A stretch of 64,000 nt of DNA from assembly GCA_011605725.1 (NCBI GenBank), contig JAAOZP010000012.1, positions 128,001 through 192,000 on the forward strand. The letters are read 5' to 3'. This DNA comes from Nitrososphaerota archaeon (GTDB taxonomy: Archaea; Thermoproteota; EX4484-205; JAAOZP01). Shown piece by piece: positions 16,172 through 38,663 of this stretch. The notes under the pieces were generated by a model. That model was not told where the DNA came from, did no database searches, and saw nothing but the letters and a program-made list of their open reading frames with translations. The translations under genes were made by a program, and so were the position numbers. The stretch's first letter is position 1. The number at the start of each line of letters is the position of its first letter.

Positions 16172-17254
16172 TTGTTAATGTTGAGGACTGTAGAATCAAG
16201 CTACCCGAACAAGGATATTAGGGAGAACTATTTGAAGGCTTTAGAATATCGTTACCCAGAATGGATTCCGTGTGGGGTTAACTTTTTACCAGGCGTATGG
16301 AAGAAGCACCGCGGGAAACTGGAGGACATCGTGGCTAGACACCCGCTTATCTTCGGCCATTATGAGAAGGACGGTAGGAATTTTGACGAGATGCCTCCTG
16401 TTTATCGCCCAGGATATTTCACGGATAACTGGGGATGTGTTTGGTATACTGTTAAAGAGGGTTTAGAGGGACAGGTTGTTGGACACCCGTTAGCCGACTG
16501 GAAAGCGTTTGAAAACTATCAGCCTCCAGACCCGTTGTTGAAGACGGAGAGAGGAGAAAGAGGAGTAGAATATTGGGAGAAAACTAAGAAGGCTTTCGCA
16601 GAGCGTAGGGAGAAGGGTCTTCTAAGGGTCGGCGACGGGGAACGCCTTTTCGACCGATTATACTTCTTAAGGGGCTTTGAAAACCTGATGAGGGACATTG
16701 TTACGGATGACCCTAACCTTCCAAGGCTTATAAACATGCTTCTAAATTACGAGACTAGGCTCGTTGAGAAGTGGCTTGAAATCGGAGTGGATATCATGAG
16801 CTTCCACACAGACATAGGGACGCAGAACGGTTTGATGATAAGCCCATTGAAATTCCGGAAATACTTTAAACCAATGTTTAAAAAGCTTTTCACCCTCTGC
16901 AGGAATGCGGGTGTACATGTTTATCTCTCCTCCGACGGGCGGCTGCTGGATATTGTTGACGACCTGGTTGAATGTGGAGTCTCCGTCCATGATCCGCAGC
17001 TCCGAGCGAACACGCTGGACGGGATTGCTAGAGCTTACAAGGGCAAGCTGTGCGTCGACCTTGACTTAGACAGGCAGACACTCCCATTCTGCAGTCCCCA
17101 GGATATTCGTAGAATGGTTGAGGAGAGCATTGGAAAACTGTATTTGCCAGAGGGCGGTTTAATGATGAAAGGAGAGATCGGGCCGGATGTTCCATTGGAA
17201 AACGTCGAGGCTCTGTGTCAAGCCATGGAGGATTTCTGCATCAGGCTAAGATAG
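16172..17254 (+). CDS. Uroporphyrinogen decarboxylase / MtaA-CmuA methyltransferase superfamily protein
   Basis: TDNWGCVW, HPLADW, LRGFENLM, TDIGTQNGLMISP, DVPLEN; metal motif reads SSDG. Confidence 0.8.
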   Translation: MLMLRTVESSYPNKDIRENYLKALEYRYPEWIPCGVNFLPGVWKKHRGKLEDIVARHPLIFGHYEKDGRNFDEMPPVYRPGYFTDNWGCVWYTVKEGLEGQVVGHPLADWKAFENYQPPDPLLKTERGERGVEYWEKTKKAFAERREKGLLRVGDGERLFDRLYFLRGFENLMRDIVTDDPNLPRLINMLLNYETRLVEKWLEIGVDIMSFHTDIGTQNGLMISPLKFRKYFKPMFKKLFTLCRNAGVHVYLSSDGRLLDIVDDLVECGVSVHDPQLRANTLDGIARAYKGKLCVDLDLDRQTLPFCSPQDIRRMVEESIGKLYLPEGGLMMKGEIGPDVPLENVEALCQAMEDFCIRLR

Positions 17255-20333: not shown

Positions 20334-21386
20334 CTACTCCACCAGTGGTAGAGCCACTTTACTCCCAGTTCTATGAGCCCTGTATATGGCGAGGACAATC
20401 TCCAGCGATTTCCTCGCCTCCTCACCGGGGACTGCAGGAGGCCTATCCTTCAGAATCGACTCAATAAAGTCCCTAACAGTCTCATCGTGTCCAAGGAACG
20501 GGGTTACTGTCTCCATTCTTTCCCCCACGCTTTCTTTACTCACAACCGTCCCGCTTTCCTCACTCCACTCCCTTGCAACCCTCTTATCACTCCCTATGAT
20601 GACGGATTTTCTGCTACCGTAGATCGCGACCCAATCCTCCTGGGGTCGAAGGTCAACGCTCCCTAGTATGTAGCCTATTGCACCGCTCTTAAAACGGAGT
20701 ATTGAAACAGCGATGTCCTCGGTTTCAATACTGTGCATCCTAGTATCGTATATCCCATAGAGATATTCCACCGGCCCCATTATCCATTGCAAAAGATCCA
20801 CAAGGTGGATTGTTTGATTTATTAAGGCTCCTCCGCCCTCAGTAGCCCATTTTCCACGCCAAGACTTTGCGACTTCATCCGCATGGTAGTAGGTCTTGTC
20901 TTCACGATACCATTTTACGACGGCTTCACCGTATATCGGTATTCCGAAGTCACCGTTTTCAAACTCTCTCTTCACCCTTTGAACATCCTGCGAGAAACGG
21001 TTTTGAAAAACTATTGCAAGTTTCACGCCGTTTTTTCTACAGGCACTAATCATTTCGTCCGCCTGCTTTAGAGATATTGCTATTGGCTTCTCGCAGAGAA
21101 CATGCTTAAAGTGTTCTGCAGCTTTTATCGTTATTTCAGCATGCAGGTGGTGGGGCGTACAGATGCTTACCGCATCAACACTCCTGTCTTTCAACAGGTC
21201 TTCATAGTTCTCGTAAACACTGGCATGCTTAAGGCTGAACCTCTCAGCCAGAGCCTTCGCTCTTTCAACCCTGCTGTCGGCGAGAGCAGTTATCTCAGCC
21301 ATACCTGATTTCAAATAGCCGGAGACGTGGGAAGCCGCAATCCCGCCGCACCCGATTACCCCGACTCTCACTTTCTCTCCGCCCAT
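20334..21386 (-). CDS. Gfo/Idh/MocA family oxidoreductase
   Basis: GCGGIA, CTPHHLH, CEKP, GGGALINQTIH. Confidence 0.9.
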   Translation of the reverse strand: MGGEKVRVGVIGCGGIAASHVSGYLKSGMAEITALADSRVERAKALAERFSLKHASVYENYEDLLKDRSVDAVSICTPHHLHAEITIKAAEHFKHVLCEKPIAISLKQADEMISACRKNGVKLAIVFQNRFSQDVQRVKREFENGDFGIPIYGEAVVKWYREDKTYYHADEVAKSWRGKWATEGGGALINQTIHLVDLLQWIMGPVEYLYGIYDTRMHSIETEDIAVSILRFKSGAIGYILGSVDLRPQEDWVAIYGSRKSVIIGSDKRVAREWSEESGTVVSKESVGERMETVTPFLGHDETVRDFIESILKDRPPAVPGEEARKSLEIVLAIYRAHRTGSKVALPLVE

Positions 21387-21482: not shown

Positions 21483-22754
21483 ATGGAGAGGGAGAAAAGA
21501 TTCATAAAGATTTTTGAAGAAATCCCCAACACTCCAGTGATAGATATTCACACGCATCTGAACCCTGTGAGGCTGAAAGCTAAGGATTTATCTGAAATAA
21601 TCCTATACCATTACATTGCTACGGAGCTTGCTTCCTCAGGAATGCCTAGAGAAATACTTGACATAGAGGATCCTGATGAAAGAGTTAGAAGGGTCATCCC
21701 ATTTCTTAAAAACGTGAGAAACACGTCGACCTTCTGGGCTTTAAGAAGGGTTTTCAGCCTCTTTGATTTTAACGAGGAGCTGACTGAGAAAAGCTTTGCT
21801 CTGCTTAAAGACAAATTTATGGATTTTGAGAAAAACTTTGACGGAGTCAGTTTTCTGAGGAAAAGGGTCAAGGTTGAGAAAGCATTTCTAACACTACAAT
21901 TCACGGATACTGGTTTAACTTTCGACACTTCCTTCTTCACAGGCTCCCTGAGGCTTGAAAGACTTTCGAAGGAGTTTTCGAAGGAATCACTCGGAATGCT
22001 TGAGAACCTTTTCTCTTTAAAAGTAAACAGTGTTAGAGGTATGAGGGAGGCTGTAGGAGAAGTATTTGACAAGTTTAAAGAACGTATTTCGACAATCACC
22101 ATTAGCTTGAATCCTAGTGAAACCATTGTTACAGACCATAGAGAGGAGCTTGTTGACGAGGCGATACGGAAGACCGAGACGGGGGGAAGGCTTAGCCTAG
22201 AGGAGAAAAACGCGCTTCTATCATTCGTAGTAGAAGAATTTCTCAAACTAATTAAGGATGAAGGGATTGTGTTTCAGCTGATGCTGGGTGTTGAAAGACC
22301 TGTTGTTGGAGCCTCTCCACCGGATTACGCGATAGTTGTGAACGAACCCAGCCAACTGCTCTCGCTCTGCCCATTGTTCCACAAGTATAAAGAGGTTAGT
22401 TTCGACCTTATATCTGCAAGCAGAACGCAGACTCATGAGCTTGACGTGATTGCTAAAAACTACAGGAATGTTTACGTATCAGGCTTCTGGTGGTACTCAT
22501 ACTATCCCTCCATAATGATGGAGAGAACGGTTGAGAAGCTCCAAATGCTGCCTGTGAACAAGTGGTGTGCGTTCTTCAGCGATGCCCAGGTTCCAGAATG
22601 GGTTTTCGGTAAGGCGCAGCTGGTTAAACATCAGCTGGCCATTACCCTAAGCGATTTAGTTGAGAAAGAATATTTAGATTTGCAGCTTGCACTTGAAACA
22701 GCAAGAAGTTTGCTTTACGAGAACGCGTTAGAAATCTATCGTTTGAAACGATAA
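21483..22754 (+). CDS. uxaC: Uronate (glucuronate) isomerase-like, amidohydrolase superfamily
   Basis: IDIHTH, YHYIATELASSG, FQLMLG, WWY, FFSDA; divergent from canonical UxaC. Confidence 0.65.
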   Translation: MEREKRFIKIFEEIPNTPVIDIHTHLNPVRLKAKDLSEIILYHYIATELASSGMPREILDIEDPDERVRRVIPFLKNVRNTSTFWALRRVFSLFDFNEELTEKSFALLKDKFMDFEKNFDGVSFLRKRVKVEKAFLTLQFTDTGLTFDTSFFTGSLRLERLSKEFSKESLGMLENLFSLKVNSVRGMREAVGEVFDKFKERISTITISLNPSETIVTDHREELVDEAIRKTETGGRLSLEEKNALLSFVVEEFLKLIKDEGIVFQLMLGVERPVVGASPPDYAIVVNEPSQLLSLCPLFHKYKEVSFDLISASRTQTHELDVIAKNYRNVYVSGFWWYSYYPSIMMERTVEKLQMLPVNKWCAFFSDAQVPEWVFGKAQLVKHQLAITLSDLVEKEYLDLQLALETARSLLYENALEIYRLKR

Positions 22755-22818: not shown

Positions 22819-24414
22819 CTATACTAACTGTTTAAGCCTTCTTATATGACCTTTTCCAACACCTCGAACAGCACACCCGTTTTTCAAATACTCGATTATC
22901 TTCCGGTCGTCGACTATGTTAAAAGCATCCACGATTGCAGGCGTACCCCCGTTCATTCTTAGGACTTCCTCAGGCTCTAGTTGAAGGTAAACCTTATGCC
23001 TGACGGCGAAGACTATTGCGTCAACCCCTTTAACAACCTTCTCTAAATCCTGCTCAACCCTCAGGTTCTTCAAATCCTCCTGATTCCTGAATTGCTTTGC
23101 CAGTGAGAACTCGTCTTCATCCTGCTGGGCGAACTCCGGCCAAACCTTCACGTAAGGGTCGTGAACCCTTATTTCAAAACCCATTTCCCTAAGCCTTCTT
23201 ATCAGGATCTCTGAAGGAGAATGACGAGTATCACCTATATCAGCAAGGTAAGAGGCTCCGAGAACCGCTACAGTCGAGCCTTTAATATCCCTACCCGCCT
23301 CTCTAAGAGCATCCGCAACCAGATCGGCGGTGTGAAGCGGCATTTTATCATTAATGTTTATCGCTTCAATAGTGTACGGCACGCCTTCGCAACATCCGAA
23401 TATTTCCTTGAAAGCCCAGTTAGCCAGCACGCTATCCTTCGTTAAACAATACCCGCCTACGCCTAATCCAGGGTTCATAATGTTACTGTGGGTTGGGCGA
23501 ACCCTTATTCCGGGTAGAACCTTCCAAAGATCTATACCTATTTCCTCAGCCCTAAGCGTCCAATCATATATGAAGGCTATGTTAACAGCCCTGTAGGAGT
23601 TTTCAAGTACCTTCGCAACTTCGGAGGCAGTAGTATTTTCAGCCTCGTAGAGAGGGTAAGTTATCACTCGCGACAAGAATCTTCGCGCAAGCTCCGCACT
23701 CTCCGCATCTATCCCAGCCCATGTTCTCCAGAAGTCCCTTATCGAGCTGACGTATTGTCTGCCCGGCATAACCCTTTCATAGGAATGAGCTAGATGCGGC
23801 GGCTTAGTTATACCCCTTTTCTCCCTCTCCTCCTTGAGAATCGGAAGCACGATTCTCTCGCAGGTTCCAGGGGGCACGGTGGTTTCAACCAGAACGAGAG
23901 CATCCTCCTTCATATACTTCCCTATCGTTCTGCAGCCGGCTTTGAAAGCATCCAGCTCAACATATCCCGCCTCAGCCTTTCCGAAAACAGGTTTCACAGC
24001 GTCAAGCTGTATGTCGACAACAATTATGTCGGCAAGACCCAGCGACTCCTCGCAGCCAGTAGCCATCAGGGTCTTCTTTTCAAGAACCGTCCTCCGGAAT
24101 ATTTCAGGTATCTCCGGATCCTCTGCACTCACAGGGGGTTTCCCCGAGTTTATGTACGGGATTTTCCAGTAGGATCTTTTAGAAGGCCTCTGATAGCCAA
24201 GTACGAAGTACGGAGAATCCTTCGCATCCGCGACGACGGCAGCCATAACCGCTCCGACGAAACCAAGCCCCATGACAGTAACTATCTCTCTACCGTGGGC
24301 ACGCTGATCCTCAACTATCCCCACTATTCTCGCAAACTCAGCCTTCAACTCATCTTTAGACGGAATACTATATGTAACGCCGTCCGGTGAAACAGAATAC
24401 TCTGGCATTTCCAA
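22819..24414 (-). CDS. Nucleotide-sugar dehydrogenase (UDP-glucose/GDP-mannose dehydrogenase family)
   Basis: GLGFVG, ETTVPPGT, HSYERVMPG, KVLENSYRAVNIA, GVGGYCLTKD (catalytic Cys), DTRHSPS. Confidence 0.88.
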   Translation of the reverse strand: MEMPEYSVSPDGVTYSIPSKDELKAEFARIVGIVEDQRAHGREIVTVMGLGFVGAVMAAVVADAKDSPYFVLGYQRPSKRSYWKIPYINSGKPPVSAEDPEIPEIFRRTVLEKKTLMATGCEESLGLADIIVVDIQLDAVKPVFGKAEAGYVELDAFKAGCRTIGKYMKEDALVLVETTVPPGTCERIVLPILKEEREKRGITKPPHLAHSYERVMPGRQYVSSIRDFWRTWAGIDAESAELARRFLSRVITYPLYEAENTTASEVAKVLENSYRAVNIAFIYDWTLRAEEIGIDLWKVLPGIRVRPTHSNIMNPGLGVGGYCLTKDSVLANWAFKEIFGCCEGVPYTIEAININDKMPLHTADLVADALREAGRDIKGSTVAVLGASYLADIGDTRHSPSEILIRRLREMGFEIRVHDPYVKVWPEFAQQDEDEFSLAKQFRNQEDLKNLRVEQDLEKVVKGVDAIVFAVRHKVYLQLEPEEVLRMNGGTPAIVDAFNIVDDRKIIEYLKNGCAVRGVGKGHIRRLKQLV

Positions 24415-24425
24415 CCCTCCGGATG

Positions 24426-26759
24426 CTACTCTCCATGTTTAAAGATTATTAAGCTTTTCCACGCGCTTCCCGGCGATCTCCATCCTTCGTCAACAACCAT
24501 CCCGTTAAGGTTCTCCCTGTCGATTATCGTCCTTTTCGCAAGCGAACTCTTAACAAAGCATTTTTTCAGAATGCTGTTCCACACTATAGCACCCCTCTCG
24601 ATCCTGCTTTCCTCAATCATCGAGTTATGCAGGACGCACCAAGGCTTAACGTGAACCTCGCCCCTGAAAACGATTTCCCCACTCAGAAAAGAATTCACAC
24701 CCACATAGAAATGTACATCACCATACTCCTCCAAGCCAGGTATCTCGGTGAATGCTAAAGACCTTAACTGCCTTGTGAACTTTTTATCAAACTTCTTTAA
24801 GCCACCCTCTTTCTCAGCAACCATCATCATAGTCTGTAGAAAACGTTTCACCCTGGGTTCCACATATATTCGCGCACCCAGGTCAACAGTAACACCGAAA
24901 ACCTTTTCAAGAGCCTCCAAAGAAAACCCTTCTAACGCTTCCAAGCCGGAATGATCCAGCTCTGGAGTTCCCCTTATTCGAGCACAGGCCTTACCGTCTT
25001 CAAGGTAAAACACCATATTCCTCATAGGCTTGAAGGCCTCGACTTCAGCCTGAAAGACATCGCATTTCTCAAGAACCGCCTTCTCTCCAACTGTTGAGTC
25101 CACTATAACTGAGTCAACTATCCTAGCGTTCTCCCCAATCCTGACAACACGCGGGGGCATAGCTATGATGAAAGAATTACTTATGCTGGAACCATCACCT
25201 ATAGTCACATCCCCCCTTATGTCAACTCTGCCTGAGAAAACAACACCTTTCCCTATCCTGTCAGCGTTAAAATCCTCGCCCACAGTTATTATAGCATCCT
25301 CTCTCACCACGCAACCTTTCTCCGTAAGCATTCTAGCCAGCCTCTTAGATTGCAGCATCGCTCCAACCCTAGCCTCACTCCTGTAGTCATATCCTTCTCC
25401 AACACCCTCTTCACCTTTAAGCAGATATATGTTAATCCTCTCCCCTTTTGAAACAGCCTCTTTAGAGACCTCTGGCAGGAAGTATTCTCCGCCAGCATGC
25501 CTCTCTAAAACATATACTCCAGGAGGGCTTGGCCCAATCCTTCTGCACAAATTTATCGAGAGCAGCTCCTCCCTGGATAACCCATGCCTCTTTTCACCTG
25601 GTTTTAAGGAGAAAATTTCAGAGTTCGGCACCACGATCTCTGAACCATCTTTTAAAACCCGCCCGTAGTTAGGAGCGTCAACATCCCTAATCACGTTAAG
25701 ATAAACCTCAACGTTCATCGCCATCAACCCCGTGTTCCTCTCCCTTATAGCGTTAAGATAGTCTGTTGAAACCTTGAAGTCGAGAAGGTTCACCTCCAGC
25801 GAACCGATGTTTCTCCTCTGCTCCTCAGTAACACCGATTTCATCCTGCTCCTTTATGTCTAGAAACTCGTCTGACATTGGGTCGAAAAGCAGAGCCTTCC
25901 CGTCTAGCCTAACCCTTCTTTCCTCAAGCTGCTCTCTTGAAAGAACTATTTTCCCCCCTGGAAGCGCTTCTCTTATAGGGTGGTATATGCATACTTTGTC
26001 TCCAGCCCTATCGACGTCACGCCTACTTAGGAAGACGTATGATGCCCATTCACCGTATTTACCAGTATCCACTTCTGGAAGCCTGAGCGCAATCAGTTCC
26101 CCGCTTCTAATCATCCTGTTTATCTTCAGCGATTTCTCATCCTTAACATCCTTCTCATCCACCAGTCCTAGAACCTTCTTTGGATACCTGACTATCCTCC
26201 CATACATGAATGGGTCTCCCTTGTCTGACGTTACTATAGTGATCTTAGCACCGGAAGACACGTGACTCTTTATAATGTTCCTTATCTCTTCCGGAGGCAC
26301 GGTTGGCACATCCCCGTAGTAGATGAAGACGTATTTCGCTCCACTTTCCTCAACAAGCTTCTTACCCTCAAAGCTGGTTGCTGCAGCACCCGTACCCTTG
26401 TCACCAGGATTGTCGAAGAAAATCCTGACGTTACTCCATTTCGCAACTATGGCTTTCAGATCCATCAACGCCTTGAGGTCTATAAGGTCCCGCTCATCCC
26501 TACACTCCTCAATACTCTCCCCAACTCTTCTGCCTGCTGAAAGAAGAATCGATTTCACTAGGCCGCACTGCATTATGGTGCTGAATATAGTGTCCAAGTA
26601 GGTTTTCCTCCAGAAAAGGTCTCTCATCGCCGGTTTCGAGATGGTGTCAGTATACGGGTCTAACCTGGTCCAGAGCGGTGTAGACCTGAAGCCTGAGCCG
26701 CCGGCAGGTACAATTGCAACAGTGCTTTCCCTAATCTTTTCTTCAGACTTGCTTCTCAT
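24426..26759 (-). CDS. Enlarged GlmU-like sugar-1-phosphate nucleotidyltransferase with left-handed beta-helix C-terminal regions
   Basis: PAGGSGFR...SKP, GTGAA, YGDVP, YGRIVR, ERNTG, EYFLP, followed by hexapeptide repeats (IGKGVV, IGDGSS, IGENAR, VGEKAV). Confidence 0.7.
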   Translation of the reverse strand: MRSKSEEKIRESTVAIVPAGGSGFRSTPLWTRLDPYTDTISKPAMRDLFWRKTYLDTIFSTIMQCGLVKSILLSAGRRVGESIEECRDERDLIDLKALMDLKAIVAKWSNVRIFFDNPGDKGTGAAATSFEGKKLVEESGAKYVFIYYGDVPTVPPEEIRNIIKSHVSSGAKITIVTSDKGDPFMYGRIVRYPKKVLGLVDEKDVKDEKSLKINRMIRSGELIALRLPEVDTGKYGEWASYVFLSRRDVDRAGDKVCIYHPIREALPGGKIVLSREQLEERRVRLDGKALLFDPMSDEFLDIKEQDEIGVTEEQRRNIGSLEVNLLDFKVSTDYLNAIRERNTGLMAMNVEVYLNVIRDVDAPNYGRVLKDGSEIVVPNSEIFSLKPGEKRHGLSREELLSINLCRRIGPSPPGVYVLERHAGGEYFLPEVSKEAVSKGERINIYLLKGEEGVGEGYDYRSEARVGAMLQSKRLARMLTEKGCVVREDAIITVGEDFNADRIGKGVVFSGRVDIRGDVTIGDGSSISNSFIIAMPPRVVRIGENARIVDSVIVDSTVGEKAVLEKCDVFQAEVEAFKPMRNMVFYLEDGKACARIRGTPELDHSGLEALEGFSLEALEKVFGVTVDLGARIYVEPRVKRFLQTMMMVAEKEGGLKKFDKKFTRQLRSLAFTEIPGLEEYGDVHFYVGVNSFLSGEIVFRGEVHVKPWCVLHNSMIEESRIERGAIVWNSILKKCFVKSSLAKRTIIDRENLNGMVVDEGWRSPGSAWKSLIIFKHGE

Positions 26760-26807: not shown

Positions 26808-28379
26808 TCAAATAAGACAAGCACCCTCAACAGGGCTGACGAGAATAATGCCGTTTCTCCGCCTACTCTCGTCACGATAATACTCTCTCCCCAACACATC
26901 CATAACCTTATTAACAGCCTTCTTATCCACAAGGATTTCGACACAGCCTCCTAGACCGGCACCTACTATGGATGCCCCTAGAGTTCCCGGAACCTTTAAC
27001 GCAGTATCGACAAGGAAATCAGTCTCCTCAGTTCCACAACCATAATAGCCCGACTGAAACTCCAGTCTAGCGTCGCCTCCTAAACGGGTAAGCTCTTCTA
27101 AGTATTCATCAGTCACTCTCACACGCCATTTCACTCCTGACTTAACCACTCTGTCAGCGTCGTGCGAAACATTCATCAGCCTTCCGAAAAGCTCCACGTC
27201 ACCTGGTAGAACCCATTCTGTTTTCCTGCTCCGCTCACACTCTGAAATCCCGAATAAGCATACTCCTCTCAAGTCGTATCCTTCCCTCGGCTCCTCATGC
27301 TCTTTAAACAGTTTGCTTAACCATTCTTCTTTCTCAGGCAGTAGACTTCTAAGCTCACTCCTACTTATTCTCTCAGGCAGCGATTTAATCATCCTATATA
27401 TTTCGGAAGTCTCGAAGTTCTCAGGATTAATATCTCTCAAATACTCAAACTTCCTCAATTCAGGGTTAAATTTCTTCATAAGCTCAAATCCAAACTCATA
27501 CGTAGAAACCTTTTCGTTAAAAATACTCCGAGCCCCCGTCATCTTGCTTGCCGCAACAAACGAGTTACACAGAATAATGTTGACACCGGTTGGAAAAGGT
27601 ATGTAAGATATTTTGAACGGAAAGAAGCCTATATGACTCACGAAGCCTTTTTTCGAAAAAAGCATAGCCGCCTGATCTCCCCATCCACCCCTAGTCCCCA
27701 CGTACCATTCCCCTATGCCAGTGTATTCAACCATCTTCTCCCTCGGGATTTCAAGGCCATTCAGGCTTGAAACCGTCAAATATGTTGCAACGACTAATGC
27801 TGATGATGAGGAAAGCCCTGCGGACCTAGGTATATCCCCATAGCAGACTATGTTTGCGCCTAGAAGCTTTTTCTTGTAGGAGCCACCGTTCATGTAAACA
27901 TTCTGCAGATAGCATACGGATTTAACATAGTTTATCCAGGATTTTCTCTCACTCTCCGTTTTCTTCTCAATGTTTTCCTGAGTCCACTTTCTCCATTCAT
28001 CCACTGTAGATATTTTTTCTGCGGGCAGTTCCTCCCCGATTTCAAACCTTCCTGATTCAAAATTTTCCTCCGCATTATGAATCTCGATGAAGGAGTCCTC
28101 TCTTCCCTCAGCAACCATTATGACTTCTCTCGGAATAACTATCGGGTTTACGAAGCCTCCTCTGTGATCAACATGCCTCCCCATCAGGTTCACCCTACCC
28201 GGAGCCCTAACTATAATCACCCTTCTCTCAAAACCATATGTTTCGCCAAACATCTTCAACACCCTCAGAATCACCCTCCTCCTTTCTTCCATGAAATCCG
28301 GCCCATACATCTCAGCCAGCCTACTAGCCCCGGGACCCGTGTTGAGGAAATCGATCCATGAGGAAACAGTTCTCAACAT
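26808..28379 (-). CDS. GHMP galactokinase-family sugar-1-kinase with an altered substrate motif
   Basis: APGRVNLMGRHVDH, PRSAGLSSSSA, GWGDQ, GAGLGGC. Confidence 0.85.
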   Translation of the reverse strand: MLRTVSSWIDFLNTGPGASRLAEMYGPDFMEERRRVILRVLKMFGETYGFERRVIIVRAPGRVNLMGRHVDHRGGFVNPIVIPREVIMVAEGREDSFIEIHNAEENFESGRFEIGEELPAEKISTVDEWRKWTQENIEKKTESERKSWINYVKSVCYLQNVYMNGGSYKKKLLGANIVCYGDIPRSAGLSSSSALVVATYLTVSSLNGLEIPREKMVEYTGIGEWYVGTRGGWGDQAAMLFSKKGFVSHIGFFPFKISYIPFPTGVNIILCNSFVAASKMTGARSIFNEKVSTYEFGFELMKKFNPELRKFEYLRDINPENFETSEIYRMIKSLPERISRSELRSLLPEKEEWLSKLFKEHEEPREGYDLRGVCLFGISECERSRKTEWVLPGDVELFGRLMNVSHDADRVVKSGVKWRVRVTDEYLEELTRLGGDARLEFQSGYYGCGTEETDFLVDTALKVPGTLGASIVGAGLGGCVEILVDKKAVNKVMDVLGREYYRDESRRRNGIILVSPVEGACLI

Positions 28380-28467
28380 TCTGCTGAAAATCGTCTTGAG
28401 AATTCATATTTAAGCGTTGATTAACGGTTTGCGAATTCTTATATATCTATCAAGAGTTAGGGAAAGC

Positions 28468-29487
28468 ATGCCTGTCAAAGTGGCGGTTTATGGATTGGGG
28501 CCTATAGGGACACTCATAGCCAGAAAAGTTTTAGAACGGGAAAACCTTGAATTGGTAGCAGCTTTCGAGATAGACCCTTCTAAAATAGGCATGGATGTCG
28601 GTGAAGCGATTAGTATAGGTGAGAGGATTGGCGTAATTGTTTCAAGAGAGTCTGATGCAGCCGAGATCCTGAAGATAAGTGGAGCAGATGTCGTGCTTCA
28701 CGCAACCTCCTCCCACCTGGATAAGATATACCCGCAGATCGTTAAATGCGTTGAAGCAGGTGCTGATTTAATCTCGACTTCAGAGACGCTGGTAAACCCT
28801 TGGTATCGATACCCTAAGCTTGCCTCAGAAATAGATAGAATGGCTAGGGAAAACAATGTTTCAATAATGGGTGCCGGTGTAAACCCGGGGTTCGTGTTCG
28901 ACGCTCTACCAATACTTATGACGCTTGTTTGCATAAGAGTAGACTGTTTGAAAGTCATAAGGTCTTTAGACGCTGGGAAGAGAAGACTTTCTTTCCAAAA
29001 GAAATACGGGCTTGCCTTAAGCGTCGAGGAGTTTAGGCATAAAATGGATAGCGGCGAGATAACGGGACACATAGGGTATGGAGAATCCGTTGACCTTATA
29101 GCATCTGCGCTGGGAGTAAACCTAACTAGGATTGTTGAGGGACAGGAACCAATAGTCTCAGCGAAACTGTTGAAAACTCAATACTTTGAAATAATGCCTG
29201 GAAAAGTCTCGGGAATACATGGCTACGGAATAGGATATGTTGGAGAGAAAGAATTCATCAGGGTTGAGCTGATAGCTGAAGCCGGTAGGGAAGAGTTTGA
29301 AGAAGTAATCATCCAAGGGGAACCGCCGGTGAAATGGAGAAGTACAGGTATCCCAGGTGATACTGCTACTGCTGCAGTGGTGATCAACCTTATTCCGAAG
29401 GTTTTAGAAGCAAGGTCAGGCTTACTTAGGATAACGGATATTTCCCTGCCCTCAGCCTTCTCAAATTTAAAAGCCAGTAATTCTTGA
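28468..29487 (+). CDS. NAD(P)-dependent amine dehydrogenase (2,4-diaminopentanoate dehydrogenase / DapB_N family)
   Basis: GLGPIG, HATSS, GVNPGF, GHIG, GDTATAA. Likely start ATG 28468 (track 28417). Confidence 0.75.
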   Translation: MPVKVAVYGLGPIGTLIARKVLERENLELVAAFEIDPSKIGMDVGEAISIGERIGVIVSRESDAAEILKISGADVVLHATSSHLDKIYPQIVKCVEAGADLISTSETLVNPWYRYPKLASEIDRMARENNVSIMGAGVNPGFVFDALPILMTLVCIRVDCLKVIRSLDAGKRRLSFQKKYGLALSVEEFRHKMDSGEITGHIGYGESVDLIASALGVNLTRIVEGQEPIVSAKLLKTQYFEIMPGKVSGIHGYGIGYVGEKEFIRVELIAEAGREEFEEVIIQGEPPVKWRSTGIPGDTATAAVVINLIPKVLEARSGLLRITDISLPSAFSNLKASNS

Positions 29488-30797
29488 AAACCATGGAGAT
29501 GAGCTACCTGGAGAGGACTAAAAAATCCATGGAACTCTTTGAAAAAGCTAGGAAACATATTCCCGGCGGATCGGCTTACTCAATAAGGTATTTCGAACCG
29601 TATCCTTTCTACGTTAGCAGGGCTAAAGGCAGCAGGATCTGGGATGTCGACGGCAACGAATACGTTGACTTCTGGATGGTTCATTTCGCAGCCGTACTGG
29701 GACACGGCTATAGGCCTGTGATTGAAGCTGCGAAGGAACAGCTTGAGCATGGTGCACACTTCGGCTGGTGCAACGAGTGGGAGGTGAAATGGGCGGAAGC
29801 AGTGTGCAGATGGTTCGACGTGGATATGGCTAAGCCAGCCAATAGCGGGACGGAGGCGAACATGTATGCTGTCAGGCTTGCGAGAGCCTACACTGGAAGA
29901 AGAAAGATCGGGAAGATGGAGGGGGGATGGCATGGAGGATACGACGGTCTGCATAAGGCGGTTAACTATCCCTATGATAAGCCGTCGTCTTTAGGCTTAG
30001 CCTGTGTTGAAAACATTGTTCCACTCCCGTTTAACGATCTTGAGGCAACGATAAGAATAGCTGGGAAAGAAGATCTGGCAGGCATAATTTTGGAACCGGT
30101 TCTCGGATCGGCGGGAGTTATTCCGGCGAGCGAAGAGTACTTGAAAGGCCTTAGGGAATTCTGCAGTAGGAGGAACATAGTGTTGATATTCGACGAGGTT
30201 ATCACTGGGTTTAGGCATCCCGGCGGTATGCAGAATTATTTCAAAGTCAAGCCGGATATAACGACCATAGGTAAAACAGCCGGAGGACAGTATTTCGCTG
30301 GAGCGGGAGGAATATGTGGAACAGCCGAGATAATGAGTCTACTCGACCAAGTCGAGAGACCAGAATTTTGGAACCGTTCATTCCACGGAGGAACGTATGT
30401 GGGTAATGCTTTGACAATGCGCGCCGGATATGTTACGATAAACGAGCTTGAAAAGAAGAGTGGAGAAGTATATTCCTACATTAATTCTCTCGGAGAATAC
30501 GGTAGAAGACGGATCATGGAGGTTCTTGAGGAAAACCGTTTCGAGGCCTACGTCACTGGATTACTGTCTATGATAGGCTTGCATTTCACAAGGGAAAAGC
30601 CGTTTAACGGGTTGACGGCGGAGAGAACTAAGAATAGAGAGTTAAGTAGAAAATTATTCAACCACATGCTGCAGAAGGGAATAGTATATCAGAGGCCCGA
30701 GACCCCGCACTTCGCAGTCTCGACTGCTCACTCAATGGATGAGATGGAAAGACTCGTGGAAGAACTAGATACCTTTATTAAAAAGGAAAGAGGATGA
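29484..30797 (+). CDS. Class III PLP aminotransferase (GSA aminomutase-like)
   Basis: WDVDGNEYVD, NSGTEA, FDEVITGFR, GK PLP-lysine, HGGTY; overlaps the upstream stop. Confidence 0.85.
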   Translation: MKTMEMSYLERTKKSMELFEKARKHIPGGSAYSIRYFEPYPFYVSRAKGSRIWDVDGNEYVDFWMVHFAAVLGHGYRPVIEAAKEQLEHGAHFGWCNEWEVKWAEAVCRWFDVDMAKPANSGTEANMYAVRLARAYTGRRKIGKMEGGWHGGYDGLHKAVNYPYDKPSSLGLACVENIVPLPFNDLEATIRIAGKEDLAGIILEPVLGSAGVIPASEEYLKGLREFCSRRNIVLIFDEVITGFRHPGGMQNYFKVKPDITTIGKTAGGQYFAGAGGICGTAEIMSLLDQVERPEFWNRSFHGGTYVGNALTMRAGYVTINELEKKSGEVYSYINSLGEYGRRRIMEVLEENRFEAYVTGLLSMIGLHFTREKPFNGLTAERTKNRELSRKLFNHMLQKGIVYQRPETPHFAVSTAHSMDEMERLVEELDTFIKKERG

Positions 30798-35211: not shown

Positions 35212-37455
35212 ATGGCGACTAAGAAAGAATACTTCGACTTTATTAAAAAGTATTATGAGGAACTATTAAGGAGTTACGAACATTCTTTGAAAGAATGGTT
35301 GAAAAGAATGGAAACCGCTGATTCCTTCGACCCGCCTATGGTTCCGGTTACACGTGCCCTCATCGAAGGCTTCCTCTACCGTGTTACAGGAAACAAGGAG
35401 TATGCTGAAAAAGCTAGGGAAGCAATGCTTACTTATCAGAAGCTACCCGACATAGTTCCGGATAATTTGAGAAGAATGCCTAAATACGCTGGAGGTGTCC
35501 GCCCAATGCTGAACTGGTTTGGAGGAGTTACCCTTTTCCTACGAGCCTATGAATTCATACTGGACAGCGGGGTTATAGGAAGGGAGGATAGAGAGGTTTT
35601 TAAGGAGATAGTTGGAAACAGTCTTGAACCATTCTTCTCCTTCCCAGAGTGGGGGCCGCATAACCGTGCGATTAAAAGAGGATTAGCATTAACTTATGCT
35701 GCAAAAATATTTCCAGACCATCCTGATGCTTCGAAATGGAGCAAGCTTGGAAAACTAATGGTGGAACCGAGCCTGAAACACTGGTCGCTTGAAGACAGTG
35801 AGCTCTACGTTCCAATCTGGTTTTCAGACCTACTTCTTTATCTGGATGTTACTGGAGACCGTGAAGTATTCGACTCACCCGTCATGAAGTATTATTTCCA
35901 TTATTTTACATACTTGCTCTGCCCGCTCGGAATGATCCCGGATTTTGGGGATGCGACATGGGGTGCAAACTCAGAGCTGTATTTAGCGATCCTGGAGAAG
36001 GGAGCCAGCGTTTATAGAGACCCCTACATGAAGTATGCTGCAGACAGAATCTTCAGGTTCGCCGTAAAGGAGAAAAGGCTAGGCGTCTACGCTATATTCG
36101 CATACCTCTGGTCAGACGACAATGTTGAAGCTAGGGTTCCGGAGTCCAACAGCCAGGAAGTTCTGGACGAAGTTATCGGTAAGAAGATTGTTTTCAGAGA
36201 AGGCTGGAACGAGAATGCAACATACATGCTTCTCAACTACATGGATGAGGGAGATATCGGCTGGTATTACAAGGAGCATTTGCGTAATACCCTCGTAGTA
36301 ACCGCGGAGAAAATGCATCACGGGCATGCTGATGAAAACTCTATTGTTGCTCTTGTGAAAAACAGCGCTTTCCTGCTTCACGACGGGGGTTATCGCGAGG
36401 CTCTGCCAAACGGGGCCTACAGGGCTGACGTTTATCATAACCGTATAGTAGTTCGACAGGGAAGACCAAAGGGTCAAAGGCTTTTCGAGTTTCTCCACGA
36501 TAAAGGGGTTTACCAGCCTGTTAGGACGAGAAGAGTTCATTTCAAAACATTCCGAGAAGTCGACGTTAGCAGAACCGAAGTAACAGATGATAAGAACGGG
36601 TATCATTGGGACAGGGTTATAACATACTTGAAGAATTTGAAGGCTTTTGTAATCCATGACGGAGTAAGGCTTCTAAAAGACGGCGAGTTCACAATCAGCA
36701 ATCTATTATGGACACAAAACATTCATGCTGGTGGTGAAGAATATTTTGACACTTCGATCGACCTAATAGGACTAGTTGGAGCAATGAGCAATATGAAGAT
36801 AACTCTTGAAGAAAGAAAACGTTTCGCATGGCCCAATAAGAAGGGTGAAAGACTCTTAATTTATTTCCAGCCGGATGGAAGCAAGAAACTAGGAGTCGAT
36901 GACGAGATGCGGTGTTACCTTCCTGAAAAATGCGTATACCAGACTTATTCGAATAGTTTTAAAAAAGGAGAGTACGTTTCCTTCACAACCTTCCTATGGC
37001 CCCACAGGGAGGACGAGGCTATTGAAGCTATGCTTAGCAAGCTTAAACAGGTTAAAGTAGACAAGTATCCGAATGCTACCGCTATAAGAATAGAGCAGCC
37101 CGACGGAGCAACATACGTGTGCGTTAAACACGATCTCTCCATCGGGCTAGTCAGGCCAGAGGTTAGACCAGTCTACACGTATGAAGCCGGGGAGATTCGA
37201 TACGACGAGTTTGCAACTGACGCAGCCTACCTTTACGCGAGGCTTAACAGTAACCTGCTAAAATACGCTTTCATAGACGGGATGAAGCTTAGGTTCAGAA
37301 ACATAATGGTCTTCTCCTCCGAAGAGCCGAGCATTATCGACCTTACTCACCGGCCAGACATTGACCGTAAAGGAACTTTTAAGACTGAGAAGGAATACTG
37401 GGAGTTCGAGCTTAAAACGAAGTGGGATTCCTGGGAAGACGAGACTAGTGTTTGA
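35212..37455 (+). CDS. Heparinase II/III-like (polysaccharide lyase-type) cytoplasmic protein
   Basis: Helical N-half with HNR and PDFGD; beta C-half with HHGHADENS, HDGGY and YHNRIVV; no signal peptide. Confidence 0.55.
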   Translation: MATKKEYFDFIKKYYEELLRSYEHSLKEWLKRMETADSFDPPMVPVTRALIEGFLYRVTGNKEYAEKAREAMLTYQKLPDIVPDNLRRMPKYAGGVRPMLNWFGGVTLFLRAYEFILDSGVIGREDREVFKEIVGNSLEPFFSFPEWGPHNRAIKRGLALTYAAKIFPDHPDASKWSKLGKLMVEPSLKHWSLEDSELYVPIWFSDLLLYLDVTGDREVFDSPVMKYYFHYFTYLLCPLGMIPDFGDATWGANSELYLAILEKGASVYRDPYMKYAADRIFRFAVKEKRLGVYAIFAYLWSDDNVEARVPESNSQEVLDEVIGKKIVFREGWNENATYMLLNYMDEGDIGWYYKEHLRNTLVVTAEKMHHGHADENSIVALVKNSAFLLHDGGYREALPNGAYRADVYHNRIVVRQGRPKGQRLFEFLHDKGVYQPVRTRRVHFKTFREVDVSRTEVTDDKNGYHWDRVITYLKNLKAFVIHDGVRLLKDGEFTISNLLWTQNIHAGGEEYFDTSIDLIGLVGAMSNMKITLEERKRFAWPNKKGERLLIYFQPDGSKKLGVDDEMRCYLPEKCVYQTYSNSFKKGEYVSFTTFLWPHREDEAIEAMLSKLKQVKVDKYPNATAIRIEQPDGATYVCVKHDLSIGLVRPEVRPVYTYEAGEIRYDEFATDAAYLYARLNSNLLKYAFIDGMKLRFRNIMVFSSEEPSIIDLTHRPDIDRKGTFKTEKEYWEFELKTKWDSWEDETSV

Positions 37456-37595
37456 AACGCGTGAAAACATTAACCATAGCTGAACCCAGCGTACTAACTC
37501 TTCAACAACAGGTAAAAAGTCATACGGCTTTTTAGAAGCCCCCTATACTTGACTCCTAAAAACATATATGCAGGTCTCTTGTGCAGTGTTTTAAA

Positions 37596-38663
37596 ATGGC
37601 TCTAACATCACGGGAAAGAGTGTTGATGGCTCTTAAGCATAAGGAAGCTGACAGGATTCCGATACATGATAGCCCCTGGGGTGCTACTGTCGACAGGTGG
37701 AGGAGTGAAGGCCTACCCTCAGGCGTTTCACCCGCCGACTATTTTGGGTATGAGCTAGCCGGGTTCTCAGCCGACACTACTCCACAGCTTCCCGTTGAGG
37801 TAATCAGGGAGGATGAAGAGTACATAGTTGAAAAAGATTCTTACGGGGGGATTAGGAGAAACCATAGAGACAGGTCAACCACGCCAGAGATAATAGATTA
37901 TCCCTGTAAGAGCAGGGCTGACTGGGAGAAGCTTAAGCCCCGGCTTCAGCCGAGCGACTGGAGGGTTGACTGGGTTTCAACTTTCAACAATTACCATTAC
38001 CAGAGGAGCCTAGGCAGGTTCATAACTTACAACGCAGCTGTAGGGTTTGACAAGATTCAGAACTATGTCGCCACGACAAGGCTTTTGAAAGCAGTCGTAA
38101 TGGAGCCAGAGTGGGTGGTTGACATGTATTGGACAGACGCTAAGCTTGCAATGGAAATGTGTGAAAGAATGATGAGGGCAGGGTTAAAGTTTGACGGAGC
38201 ATTCCTCTTCTGCGACCTGGGTTATAAGAACGGCTTATTGTTCTCCCCGAAACACTATGAGCAGCAGCTTCACCCTGTTTTTAAAGAGCTCTGCAGGTTT
38301 TTCCACAGTAGAGACATGCCGGTCCTGCTTCACAGTTGCGGAAGGGTTAAGGACCTAATACCCTTCTTTATAGAGGAAGGCATTGACTGCTTGCAGCCGC
38401 TTGAAGTAAAGGCTGGCATGGACCTCGTCGAGCTTAAGGAGCGATACGGTGATAAGCTTTGCTTCATGGGAGGAATAGACGTGAGGCTGATGGCTTTAGA
38501 CGACCCTGCTCCACTCGAGGAGGAGATAAAACGGAAAATATCTTTCGCGAAGCAGGGTGGGGGATACATTTACCACTCAGACCACTCGATACCGAAAAAC
38601 GTGAGCTTCGCAAACTACAGGAGAGTCATAGAGCTGGTTAAGAAGCACGGAGCATACACTTAG
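37596..38663 (+). CDS. URO-D / MtaA-CmuA family protein
   Basis: SRERV...DRIP, DLGYKNGLLFSP, LHSCG, QPLEVKAGMD, GGID, SDHSIP. Track start is 37581. Confidence 0.85.
   Translation: MALTSRERVLMALKHKEADRIPIHDSPWGATVDRWRSEGLPSGVSPADYFGYELAGFSADTTPQLPVEVIREDEEYIVEKDSYGGIRRNHRDRSTTPEIIDYPCKSRADWEKLKPRLQPSDWRVDWVSTFNNYHYQRSLGRFITYNAAVGFDKIQNYVATTRLLKAVVMEPEWVVDMYWTDAKLAMEMCERMMRAGLKFDGAFLFCDLGYKNGLLFSPKHYEQQLHPVFKELCRFFHSRDMPVLLHSCGRVKDLIPFFIEEGIDCLQPLEVKAGMDLVELKERYGDKLCFMGGIDVRLMALDDPAPLEEEIKRKISFAKQGGGYIYHSDHSIPKNVSFANYRRVIELVKKHGAYT

Follow-up and report, generated by a model that had tools for sequence, protein, structure and literature searches.

The present analysis concerns a 64,000-nucleotide stretch of DNA from a Nitrososphaerota archaeon (assembly GCA_011605725.1, contig JAAOZP010000012.1, positions 128,001 to 192,000), called hereafter the window, and within it an operon read from the minus strand. 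Its first gene encodes a sugar kinase, P0001, in which the signature glutamate of galactokinase (GalK) and of N-acetylgalactosamine (GalNAc) kinase (GALK2) is replaced by an arginine; a GlmU-like protein, P0002, and a sugar dehydrogenase follow. From its sequence, we assign P0001 to a large sister family of galactokinase and N-acetylgalactosamine kinase. Its gene and motifs are located as follows.

26808–28379, minus strand: gene of the GHMP anomeric sugar kinase P0001, 523 amino acids (open reading frame and translation; Pfam PF10509, PF00288 and PF08544)
28155–28205, minus strand: sugar-binding signature APGRVNLMGRHVDHRGG, residues 59–75 of P0001 (sequence read, translation and alignment)
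28176–28178, minus strand: codon AGG (cct on the plus strand) of Arg68, at the Glu position of GEHxDY (sequence read and alignment)
27798–27833, minus strand: GHMP motif II, the phosphate-binding loop IPRSAGLSSSSA, residues 183–194 (translation; G188 and S191–S193 invariant in the family alignment)
27672–27701, minus strand: catalytic loop VGTRGGWGDQ, residues 227–236, with Asp235 as the catalytic Asp of GIMDQ / GGMDQ (alignment to IGTEGGGMDQ of 2a2c)

The initial annotation of this DNA had reported GRHVDHRGG in place of the galactokinase motif GEHxDYxxG, and the translation of the 523-residue open reading frame on the minus strand confirms it. The motif had been placed, with no strand given, at 28156–28205, of which the end is correct and the start is one base off, the true start being 28155. 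Within APGRVNLMGRHVDHRGG, Arg62, His69 and Asp71 are accompanied by three replacements, Arg68 for Glu, His72 for Tyr, and Arg73 for Asn or Cys. In HMMER alignments, GRHVDHRGG corresponds column for column to GEHIDYCGY of human GalNAc kinase (PDB 2a2c) and likewise to GEHTDYTYG of Pyrococcus furiosus GalK, so that Arg68 indeed sits, as had been proposed, where both GalK and GalNAc kinase have their conserved Glu. In GalK structures, the Glu of GEH contacts O6, the C6 hydroxyl of galactose. The Pfam galactose-binding signature of galactokinases (PF10509) covers residues 44–90 of P0001, and the stricter galactokinase signature G-R-x-N-[LI]-I-G-E-H-x-D-Y fails on it, the protein reading GRVNLMGRHVDH with Glu changed to Arg and Tyr to His. 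Since Arg68 is kept in all close homologues (75–99% identity) and is present in 137 of 262 aligned members of the family, it is neither a sequencing quirk nor a chance replacement.

Apart from this loop, P0001 has the hallmarks of the GHMP kinase superfamily, including matches to PF00288 (E 3e-14) and PF08544 (E 8e-8) and a GHMP fold in its AlphaFold2 model (pLDDT 92.4, pTM 0.91, 54 homologues as input). The closest folds retrieved from the PDB by Foldseek are human GalNAc kinase 2a2c, yeast Gal1/Gal3 and human GALK1; 2a2c ranks first both by structure (Foldseek E 9e-28, TM 0.82 on the target) and by sequence (phmmer E 4e-29). The catalytic residues of an anomeric kinase are intact, Arg62 (in PGR) and Asp235 (in GxxDQ) aligning with those of 2a2c, 1s4e and 2aj4, as is the P-loop AGLSSSSA. 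In the family alignment, Arg62 is at least 90% conserved, while Asp235, His69 and the residues G228, T229, R230, G231 and G232 are invariant. P0001 reaches 157.3 bits against the TIGR00131 galK equivalog, whose cut-off is 226.65, and falls far under the cut-off of every other galK equivalog model; its sugar loop differs at three positions from the GEHIDY loop of GALK2, with which the automatic annotation of JGI places proteins of this family. We thus classify P0001, on this sequence evidence, as a GalK/GALK2-like anomeric kinase which is an orthologue of neither. Arg230 (in VGTRGG), considered as a second charge reversal relative to a Glu of GALK2, was dropped because bacterial GalKs have Lys or Arg there; this comparison was an ungapped loop alignment made by eye, the profile alignment being offset at this loop.

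The family to which P0001 belongs is large and widespread. A word-indexed search gave more than 2500 matches, the best 120 (39–99% identity, 500–615 amino acids) coming from Brockarchaeota/Thermoproteota, Armatimonadota, Planctomycetota, Poribacteria, Latescibacterota and others. From an exhaustive profile search over 1.84 billion representatives, the best 150 representatives at 50% identity were taken; the family comprises more than 150 clusters at this identity, and rank 150 still has an E value of 1e-125. When a sequence resembling the plant galacturonokinase GalAK was sought by this search, all of the best 150 of the 1.84 billion representatives proved to be family members. Similarly, a back-translated HIDHQGG pattern run over 301 Clostridia genomes had one match, a family member with Lys68, and no GalAK-like sequence. 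Across 262 profile-aligned sequences, the signature of the family is G-x-H-[IV]-[DE]-H-[RQ]-G-G. Position 68 is occupied by Arg (137 sequences), Met (58), Thr (35), Val (19), Lys (5) or, in a few, by Asn, Ser, Gln, Ile or Leu, and never by Glu or Asp (0 of 262). His72 is present in 244 sequences; at position 73, 193 sequences have Arg and 62 have Gln. Arg73 occurs in about 89% of the sequences without Arg or Lys at position 68, Gln73 is found mostly together with Arg or Lys at 68, and only about 11 of 261 sequences have Arg at neither position, about 96% having it at one or the other. The large subclades with Met, Thr or Val at position 68 retain every other residue of the pocket.

In a FastTree phylogeny, the Arg/Lys68 sequences form one large clade and a second clade holding P0001, and the Met/Thr/Val68 sequences form two others; midpoint rooting and rooting with two canonical GalK outgroups gave different roots, both weakly supported. 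In light of these distributions, the charge reversal from Glu to Arg emphasized in the initial annotation is to be regarded, at the sequence level, as a real and selected feature of large clades, the feature common to the whole family being the loss of the acidic residue. A position 68 that is never acidic, combined with an Arg at 68 or 73, fits an altered and possibly anion-friendly recognition near C6 of the sugar. Three bacterial genomes encode a canonical GalK (GEH[IT]DYN) as well as a kinase of the P0001 family, and the other GalK homologues of five bacterial genomes examined are canonical GEH[IT]DYN galactokinases; this coexistence argues for a role separate from that of galactokinase.

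Variations in architecture were also observed. In the Thermoprotei homologues (P0010–P0012, L014, L015; about 610–615 amino acids, 51–54% identity), the kinase domain is preceded by about 75 additional N-terminal residues. In a Thr-type subclade (L005/L006 9481–16125, L075), a kinase of about 500 amino acids that lacks the N-terminal helices precedes a protein of about 2200 amino acids with no Pfam match, itself followed by an ATP-grasp-like protein.

Essential clues to the function of the kinase come from its partners, the next two genes of the operon.

24426–26759, minus strand: GlmU-like P0002, 777 amino acids, combining a left-handed beta-helix with a nucleotidyltransferase domain that carries large inserts (separated by 48 bp from the kinase gene upstream)
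22819–24414, minus strand: nucleoside diphosphate (NDP)-sugar 6-dehydrogenase, 531 amino acids, third gene of the operon (all three UDPG_MGDP_dh Pfam domains; TIGR03026 at 216 bits, above cut-off)

P0002 matches the NCBIfam GlmU model with an E value of 6e-22, under cut-off, and weakly the Pfam NTP_transferase and Hexapep families; about 320 amino acids longer than GlmU, it lies under all curated cut-offs and is absent from the six best Arch_glmU matches of the host genome. The relationship becomes clearer in the fused members of the family. Indeed, roughly half of the best 150 clusters at 50% identity consist of proteins of 700–1300 amino acids whose kinase domain begins after residue 230. 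The motif was located in 104 cluster representatives, of which 52 have an N-terminal extension of at least 230 residues; 51 of these 52 carry Arg68. Each of the 11 fused proteins from the retrieved loci is Arg-type. Pfam identifies NTP_transferase in the extension of 7 of 9 fused proteins tested, and NCBIfam matches the fused domain to positions 3–245 of GlmU, its uridylyltransferase half, with E values from 1e-43 to 1e-25. Compared with solved GlmUs, the fused domain retains LAxGKGTRM, LGTG, a YGR-like glycine, EAKDA and NAQxExY. In the archaeal locus L016 (1339 amino acids), an entire GlmU-like protein including the beta-helix is joined to the kinase, and a P0002-type protein is found within fusions of 1300–1400 amino acids in L016, L036 and L058. 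The family is therefore one of kinase/pyrophosphorylase pairs, a GHMP anomeric kinase being operonic with or fused to a sugar-1-phosphate nucleotidyltransferase, and the transferase partner is, from its motifs and profile matches, of the type that handles N-acetylglucosamine (GlcNAc) 1-phosphate. Models for RmlA, ManC, HddC and MurU match the fused domains much less well. As to the dehydrogenase, its nearest equivalog is the archaeal UDP-N-acetylmannosamine (UDP-ManNAc) dehydrogenase, and an NDP-sugar dehydrogenase lies downstream of the kinase in 11 related loci, of which 10 are Arg-type.

The reading that we favor, with a probability of about one half, is that P0001 is an active ATP-dependent anomeric (C1) kinase, most likely for an N-acetylhexosamine (HexNAc)-type sugar, which feeds a GlmU-type uridylyltransferase and then a 6-dehydrogenase. 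P0001 would phosphorylate a free amino sugar, presumably GlcNAc, GalNAc, ManNAc or a de-acetylated hexosamine, and the sugar 1-phosphate would pass to P0002, which would convert it into a UDP-sugar. The 531-residue dehydrogenase would then oxidize the latter to a UDP-N-acetylhexosaminuronic acid (UDP-HexNAcA) destined for glycan synthesis. In this pathway Arg68, partly redundant with Arg73, would reshape recognition around C6/C4 of the sugar. The proposal of an amino sugar draws on the fold and motifs of the kinase, the fusions with GlmU-type domains, the amino-sugar enzymes encoded nearby and a complementarity with GlmS in the host lineage.

Regarding the gene neighborhoods, open reading frames from 84 loci were clustered and the recurrent clusters annotated. 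A NagA-like deacetylase lies immediately upstream of the kinase in 24 loci, and a NagB-like deaminase, a GlmU-C-terminal-like acetyltransferase and an IMPase-like phosphatase were found in 11, 13 and 10 loci, respectively. In bacteria with Thr/Met-type kinases, the order is IMPase-like phosphatase, GlmU-C-terminal-like acetyltransferase, NagA-like deacetylase and kinase, after which come a NagB-like deaminase or, alternatively, a class-III aminotransferase with a Gfo/Idh/MocA oxidoreductase, and then a heparinase II/III-like protein and an esterase. A NagA-like enzyme with an acetyltransferase corresponds to the normal recycling order, from GlcNAc 6-phosphate through glucosamine 6-phosphate (GlcN-6-P) and glucosamine 1-phosphate to GlcNAc 1-phosphate, in which a phosphatase plus an anomeric kinase could replace the mutase step. 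The combination of IMPase-like phosphatase, anomeric kinase and nucleotidyltransferase also resembles the MupP/AmgK/MurU logic, and thus raises the possibility of a kinase for N-acetylmuramic acid (MurNAc) acting in an AmgK/MurU-like route or, more broadly, for another neutral sugar lacking the normal contact to the C6 hydroxyl (6-deoxy sugar, pentose, heptose, or gluco- or manno-configured hexose). A non-polar C6 would be well matched by the Met, Thr or Val that many members have at position 68, and the fused domains do match MurU weakly (about E 1e-6). We nonetheless consider such substrates unlikely: GlmU matches these domains 20–35 orders of magnitude better than MurU, RmlA or ManC, the archaeal hosts are without murein, and the amino-sugar neighbors would be left unexplained.

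The Arg-type loci are contexts of glycan synthesis, with an NDP-sugar dehydrogenase (10 loci), a WbpD-like acetyltransferase, a UDP-GlcNAc 2-epimerase, an FnlA/CapF-like enzyme, and GT4 and WecA-like transferases. A GH123 enzyme is encoded directly downstream of an Arg-type kinase in one locus, and an NAGPA-type phosphodiester glycosidase (PF09992, E 9e-29) beside a fused kinase in three archaeal genomes (L016 14652–16226, L018 11658–13106, L019 12238–13671); the 2-epimerase, GT4/WecA-like, GH123 and NAGPA-like neighbors occur in single or few loci each. In Armatimonadota (Candidatus Thermosaccharophagus; L003, L004, L020, L023, L024, L052), a gene of the CCA-adding/poly(A) polymerase family always follows the Arg-type kinase within about 10 bp, a pairing with no evident metabolic logic.

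Several other genes of the window belong to clusters recurring in these neighborhoods.

20334–21386, minus strand: Gfo/Idh/MocA oxidoreductase, conserved neighbor in 24–25 loci (NCBIfam similarity to inositol 2-dehydrogenase and to archaeal UDP-GlcNAc 3-dehydrogenase, both under cut-off)
29484–30797, plus strand: class-III aminotransferase, divergent from the kinase, conserved neighbor in 16–17 loci (Pfam, NCBIfam)
21483–22754, plus strand: distant uronate-isomerase (UxaC)-like protein, convergent on the operon (NF002794 E 2e-11, 43 bits against a 387-bit cut-off)

The class-III aminotransferase, similar to glutamate-1-semialdehyde aminomutase, is overlapped by 4 bp by a 2,4-diaminopentanoate-dehydrogenase-like gene (28417–29487, plus strand). 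This pair is kept in close archaeal relatives; in bacteria, the aminotransferase pairs with a Gfo/Idh/MocA gene and alternates with a NagB-like gene. A DegT aminotransferase is also present in the window, as are two paralogues resembling uroporphyrinogen decarboxylase (URO-D) (16172–17254 and 37581–38663, both plus strand). The URO-D-like family occurs near the kinase in 9 loci, including one of a Clostridia genome (L102 3–1082), and its members at sugar loci may be methyltransferase- or decarboxylase-like enzymes.

The UxaC-like gene is conserved in 8 mainly archaeal loci, and bears on the proposal of the initial annotation that Arg68 could bind a C6 carboxylate, P0001 being a plain hexuronate (galacturonate or glucuronate) 1-kinase comparable to plant GalAK. 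Such a reading would account for the disappearance of the Glu and for the conservation of a cationic residue in large clades, and could call on the UxaC-like and weak heparinase-like genes of the window and on KduI in one related locus. The uronate-type genes of the window, however, score far under their family cut-offs. Indeed, the 747-residue heparinase II/III-like protein (35212–37455, plus strand) was set aside as evidence, having a PF07940 match of only E 9e-4, under cut-off, and no NCBIfam match; it does not cluster with the heparinase-like neighbors of the bacterial loci either. The partner of the kinase is moreover of GlmU type, with the motifs of a GlcNAc-1-phosphate uridylyltransferase, and not a UDP-sugar pyrophosphorylase (USP)-type enzyme; the dominant neighbors are amino-sugar enzymes, and the JGI grouping with GalNAc kinase points the same way.

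A further argument against a plain uronate comes from the host lineage. The host genome (93% complete) lacks GlmS, its best match reaching 38 bits, whereas GlmS was found in 14 of 14 control genomes; NagA and NagB are present above cut-off, together with one GlmM-like mutase just under cut-off. Among 18 genomes of the host class, full-length GlmS occurs in none of the 13 with the kinase and in 4 of the 5 without it, and within the genus 7 genomes have the kinase only, 4 GlmS only and 1 neither. Genomes of one family of this class have only a fragment-like GlmS homologue, a SIS-domain protein of 374–387 amino acids. This pattern, in which the operon is complementary to GlmS, fits a role in amino-sugar supply in the host lineage and would not be explained by a uronate kinase. 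Part of the initial proposal consequently stands, namely a GalK-like anomeric kinase with Arg at the position of the O6-binding Glu, whereas the plain hexuronate substrate does not, being disfavored by the GlmU-type partner, the amino-sugar neighbors, the GlmS pattern and the Met/Thr/Val68 subclades; we regard it as very improbable.

The HexNAc-type substrate that we prefer has itself several points against it. Human GalNAc kinase keeps the Glu (GEHIDY), so that binding of a HexNAc does not by itself explain the loss of this residue. A position 68 from which Glu and Asp are strictly excluded, with an Arg almost always present there or at 73, would be more in keeping with an anionic group than with a hydroxyl. 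Uronate-flavored neighbors do recur, including the UxaC-like protein, heparinase II/III-like proteins (16 loci), a CE15-like esterase and, in one locus, KduI. The GlmS argument is also open to other explanations: the genomes of the host class being kin, one event in the evolution of a single genus may underlie the complementarity, and the NagB of the host genome could make GlcN-6-P in reverse. As a general rule, the complementarity was rejected, since it fails in bacteria, where GlmS is present in 7 of 8 genomes with a fused kinase. Finally, literature searches found no assayed member of the P0001 family, nor any paper in which the family or its motif is described; they gave no full-text match to HIDHQGG, HVDHRGG or HIDHRGG, and nothing on AbGHMP (PDB 9ulx), a weak match.

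Some of these points would be accommodated if P0001 were a kinase for an acidic amino sugar, such as the uronic acid derivatives of GlcNAc, GalNAc or ManNAc (GlcNAcA, GalNAcA, ManNAcA), or for another HexNAc carrying an anion at C6, for instance a 6-sulfate. The C6 anion would then be paired with Arg68, Arg73 or both, and the UDP-sugar acid would be a direct product of the GlmU-like partner, the adjoining dehydrogenase providing a de novo route to the same compound. This possibility would make sense of the position-68 and position-73 statistics (no acidic residue among 262 sequences, Arg at one position or the other in about 96%, Gln73 mostly with Arg/Lys68), of an Arg at the very place of the O6-binding Glu, and of the Arg-type members being those fused to GlmU-type domains and found beside NDP-sugar 6-dehydrogenases (10 of 11 loci). 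It would also cover both the amino-sugar and the uronate-type (lyase-like, UxaC-like) neighbors. Against it, the large Met/Thr/Val68 subclades keep the other pocket residues and adjoin lyase-like, NagA-like and NagB-like genes, and the downstream dehydrogenase is more simply interpreted as an enzyme acting on the product of the kinase pathway; we consider this possibility doubtful. In its broadest form, the idea would make the whole family anomeric kinases for N-acetylhexosaminuronic acids or 6-sulfated HexNAc, with Arg68 and Arg73 as an interchangeable clamp for the C6 anion. With the fused GlmU-type domain, such kinases would salvage sugars to UDP-HexNAcA in a single step, by an undescribed route that would be widespread among uncultured bacteria and archaea and would accompany, in Brockarchaeia, the loss of GlmS. 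We hold this generalization to be rather doubtful as well.

Returning to the favored HexNAc-type kinase, its family has implications beyond this archaeon. Automatic pipelines label its members "galactokinase family protein" or "N-acetylgalactosamine kinase", while the defining Glu and Tyr of both enzymes are absent. As the family is spread over many uncultured phyla, with about half of its clusters made of single-chain kinase-uridylyltransferase enzymes, establishing which sugar is phosphorylated would allow thousands of annotations to be corrected and would define a new salvage route to a UDP-amino sugar. It could also open the way to the synthesis of UDP-sugars by one or two thermostable enzymes. 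The complementarity with GlmS suggests that some hot-spring archaea rely on scavenged amino sugars, which bears on their cultivation; if the substrate were an acidic amino sugar, glycan synthesis in Brockarchaeia would depend on scavenged sugars.

Among known systems, GALK2 (PDB 2a2c/2a2d; EC 2.7.1.157) is the closest to P0001 by sequence and fold, with the same three-domain GHMP/GalK architecture. Both proteins have the PGRVN...H.D sugar loop, the GLSSS P-loop, the GG.xDQ catalytic loop and, where GalK has its Tyr, Phe-Asn; both are longer than bacterial GalKs through insertions. GALK2 makes HexNAc 1-phosphate for the UDP-HexNAc pyrophosphorylase, and similar chemistry is predicted for P0001 from its genes. 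The two nevertheless share only about 22% identity and differ in their signature (GEHIDY versus GRHVDH-R) and length (458 versus 523 amino acids, P0001 having extra segments), and the partner of the P0001 family is of GlmU type and often fused, unlike that of GALK2. GalK (EC 2.7.1.6; TIGR00131; PDB 1pie, 1s4e, 1wuu) likewise shares with P0001 the fold, the catalytic Arg/Asp pair and the galactose-binding signature region, but is set apart by the equivalog score (157 bits against a 227-bit cut-off), by three replacements (Glu to Arg, Tyr to His, Asn to Arg) and by the occurrence of canonical GalK in the same genomes as the family.

The chemistry proposed here, from HexNAc through HexNAc 1-phosphate to UDP-HexNAc, is that of the bifidobacterial N-acetylhexosamine 1-kinase route (NahK with GlmU) and of AmgK/MurU. 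NahK and AmgK are, however, APH-type and not GHMP kinases, and have no homology to P0001. Plant galacturonokinase GalAK (At3g10700; EC 2.7.1.44) is reportedly a GalK-like GHMP kinase with Ala41 at the Glu position, its A41E variant being inactive. It differs from the P0001 family in its partner, which is of USP type instead of GlmU type; indeed, plant galacturonic acid 1-phosphate is used by the UDP-sugar pyrophosphorylase, unrelated to the GlmU type (PMC8636097). The layout of the fused members has its counterpart in the L-fucokinase/GDP-fucose pyrophosphorylase (FKP) of Bacteroides and plants and in the zebrafish glucuronokinase/pyrophosphorylase, in which an N-terminal nucleotidyltransferase and a C-terminal GHMP anomeric kinase convert a free sugar into an NDP-sugar (PMC11982464, PMC3938481). 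The kinases of these bifunctional enzymes belong to other GHMP branches without the GalK signature, and their transferase domains are not GlmU-like. About half of the P0001 family shares this FKP-like fusion layout, whereas the window has two separate, adjacent genes.

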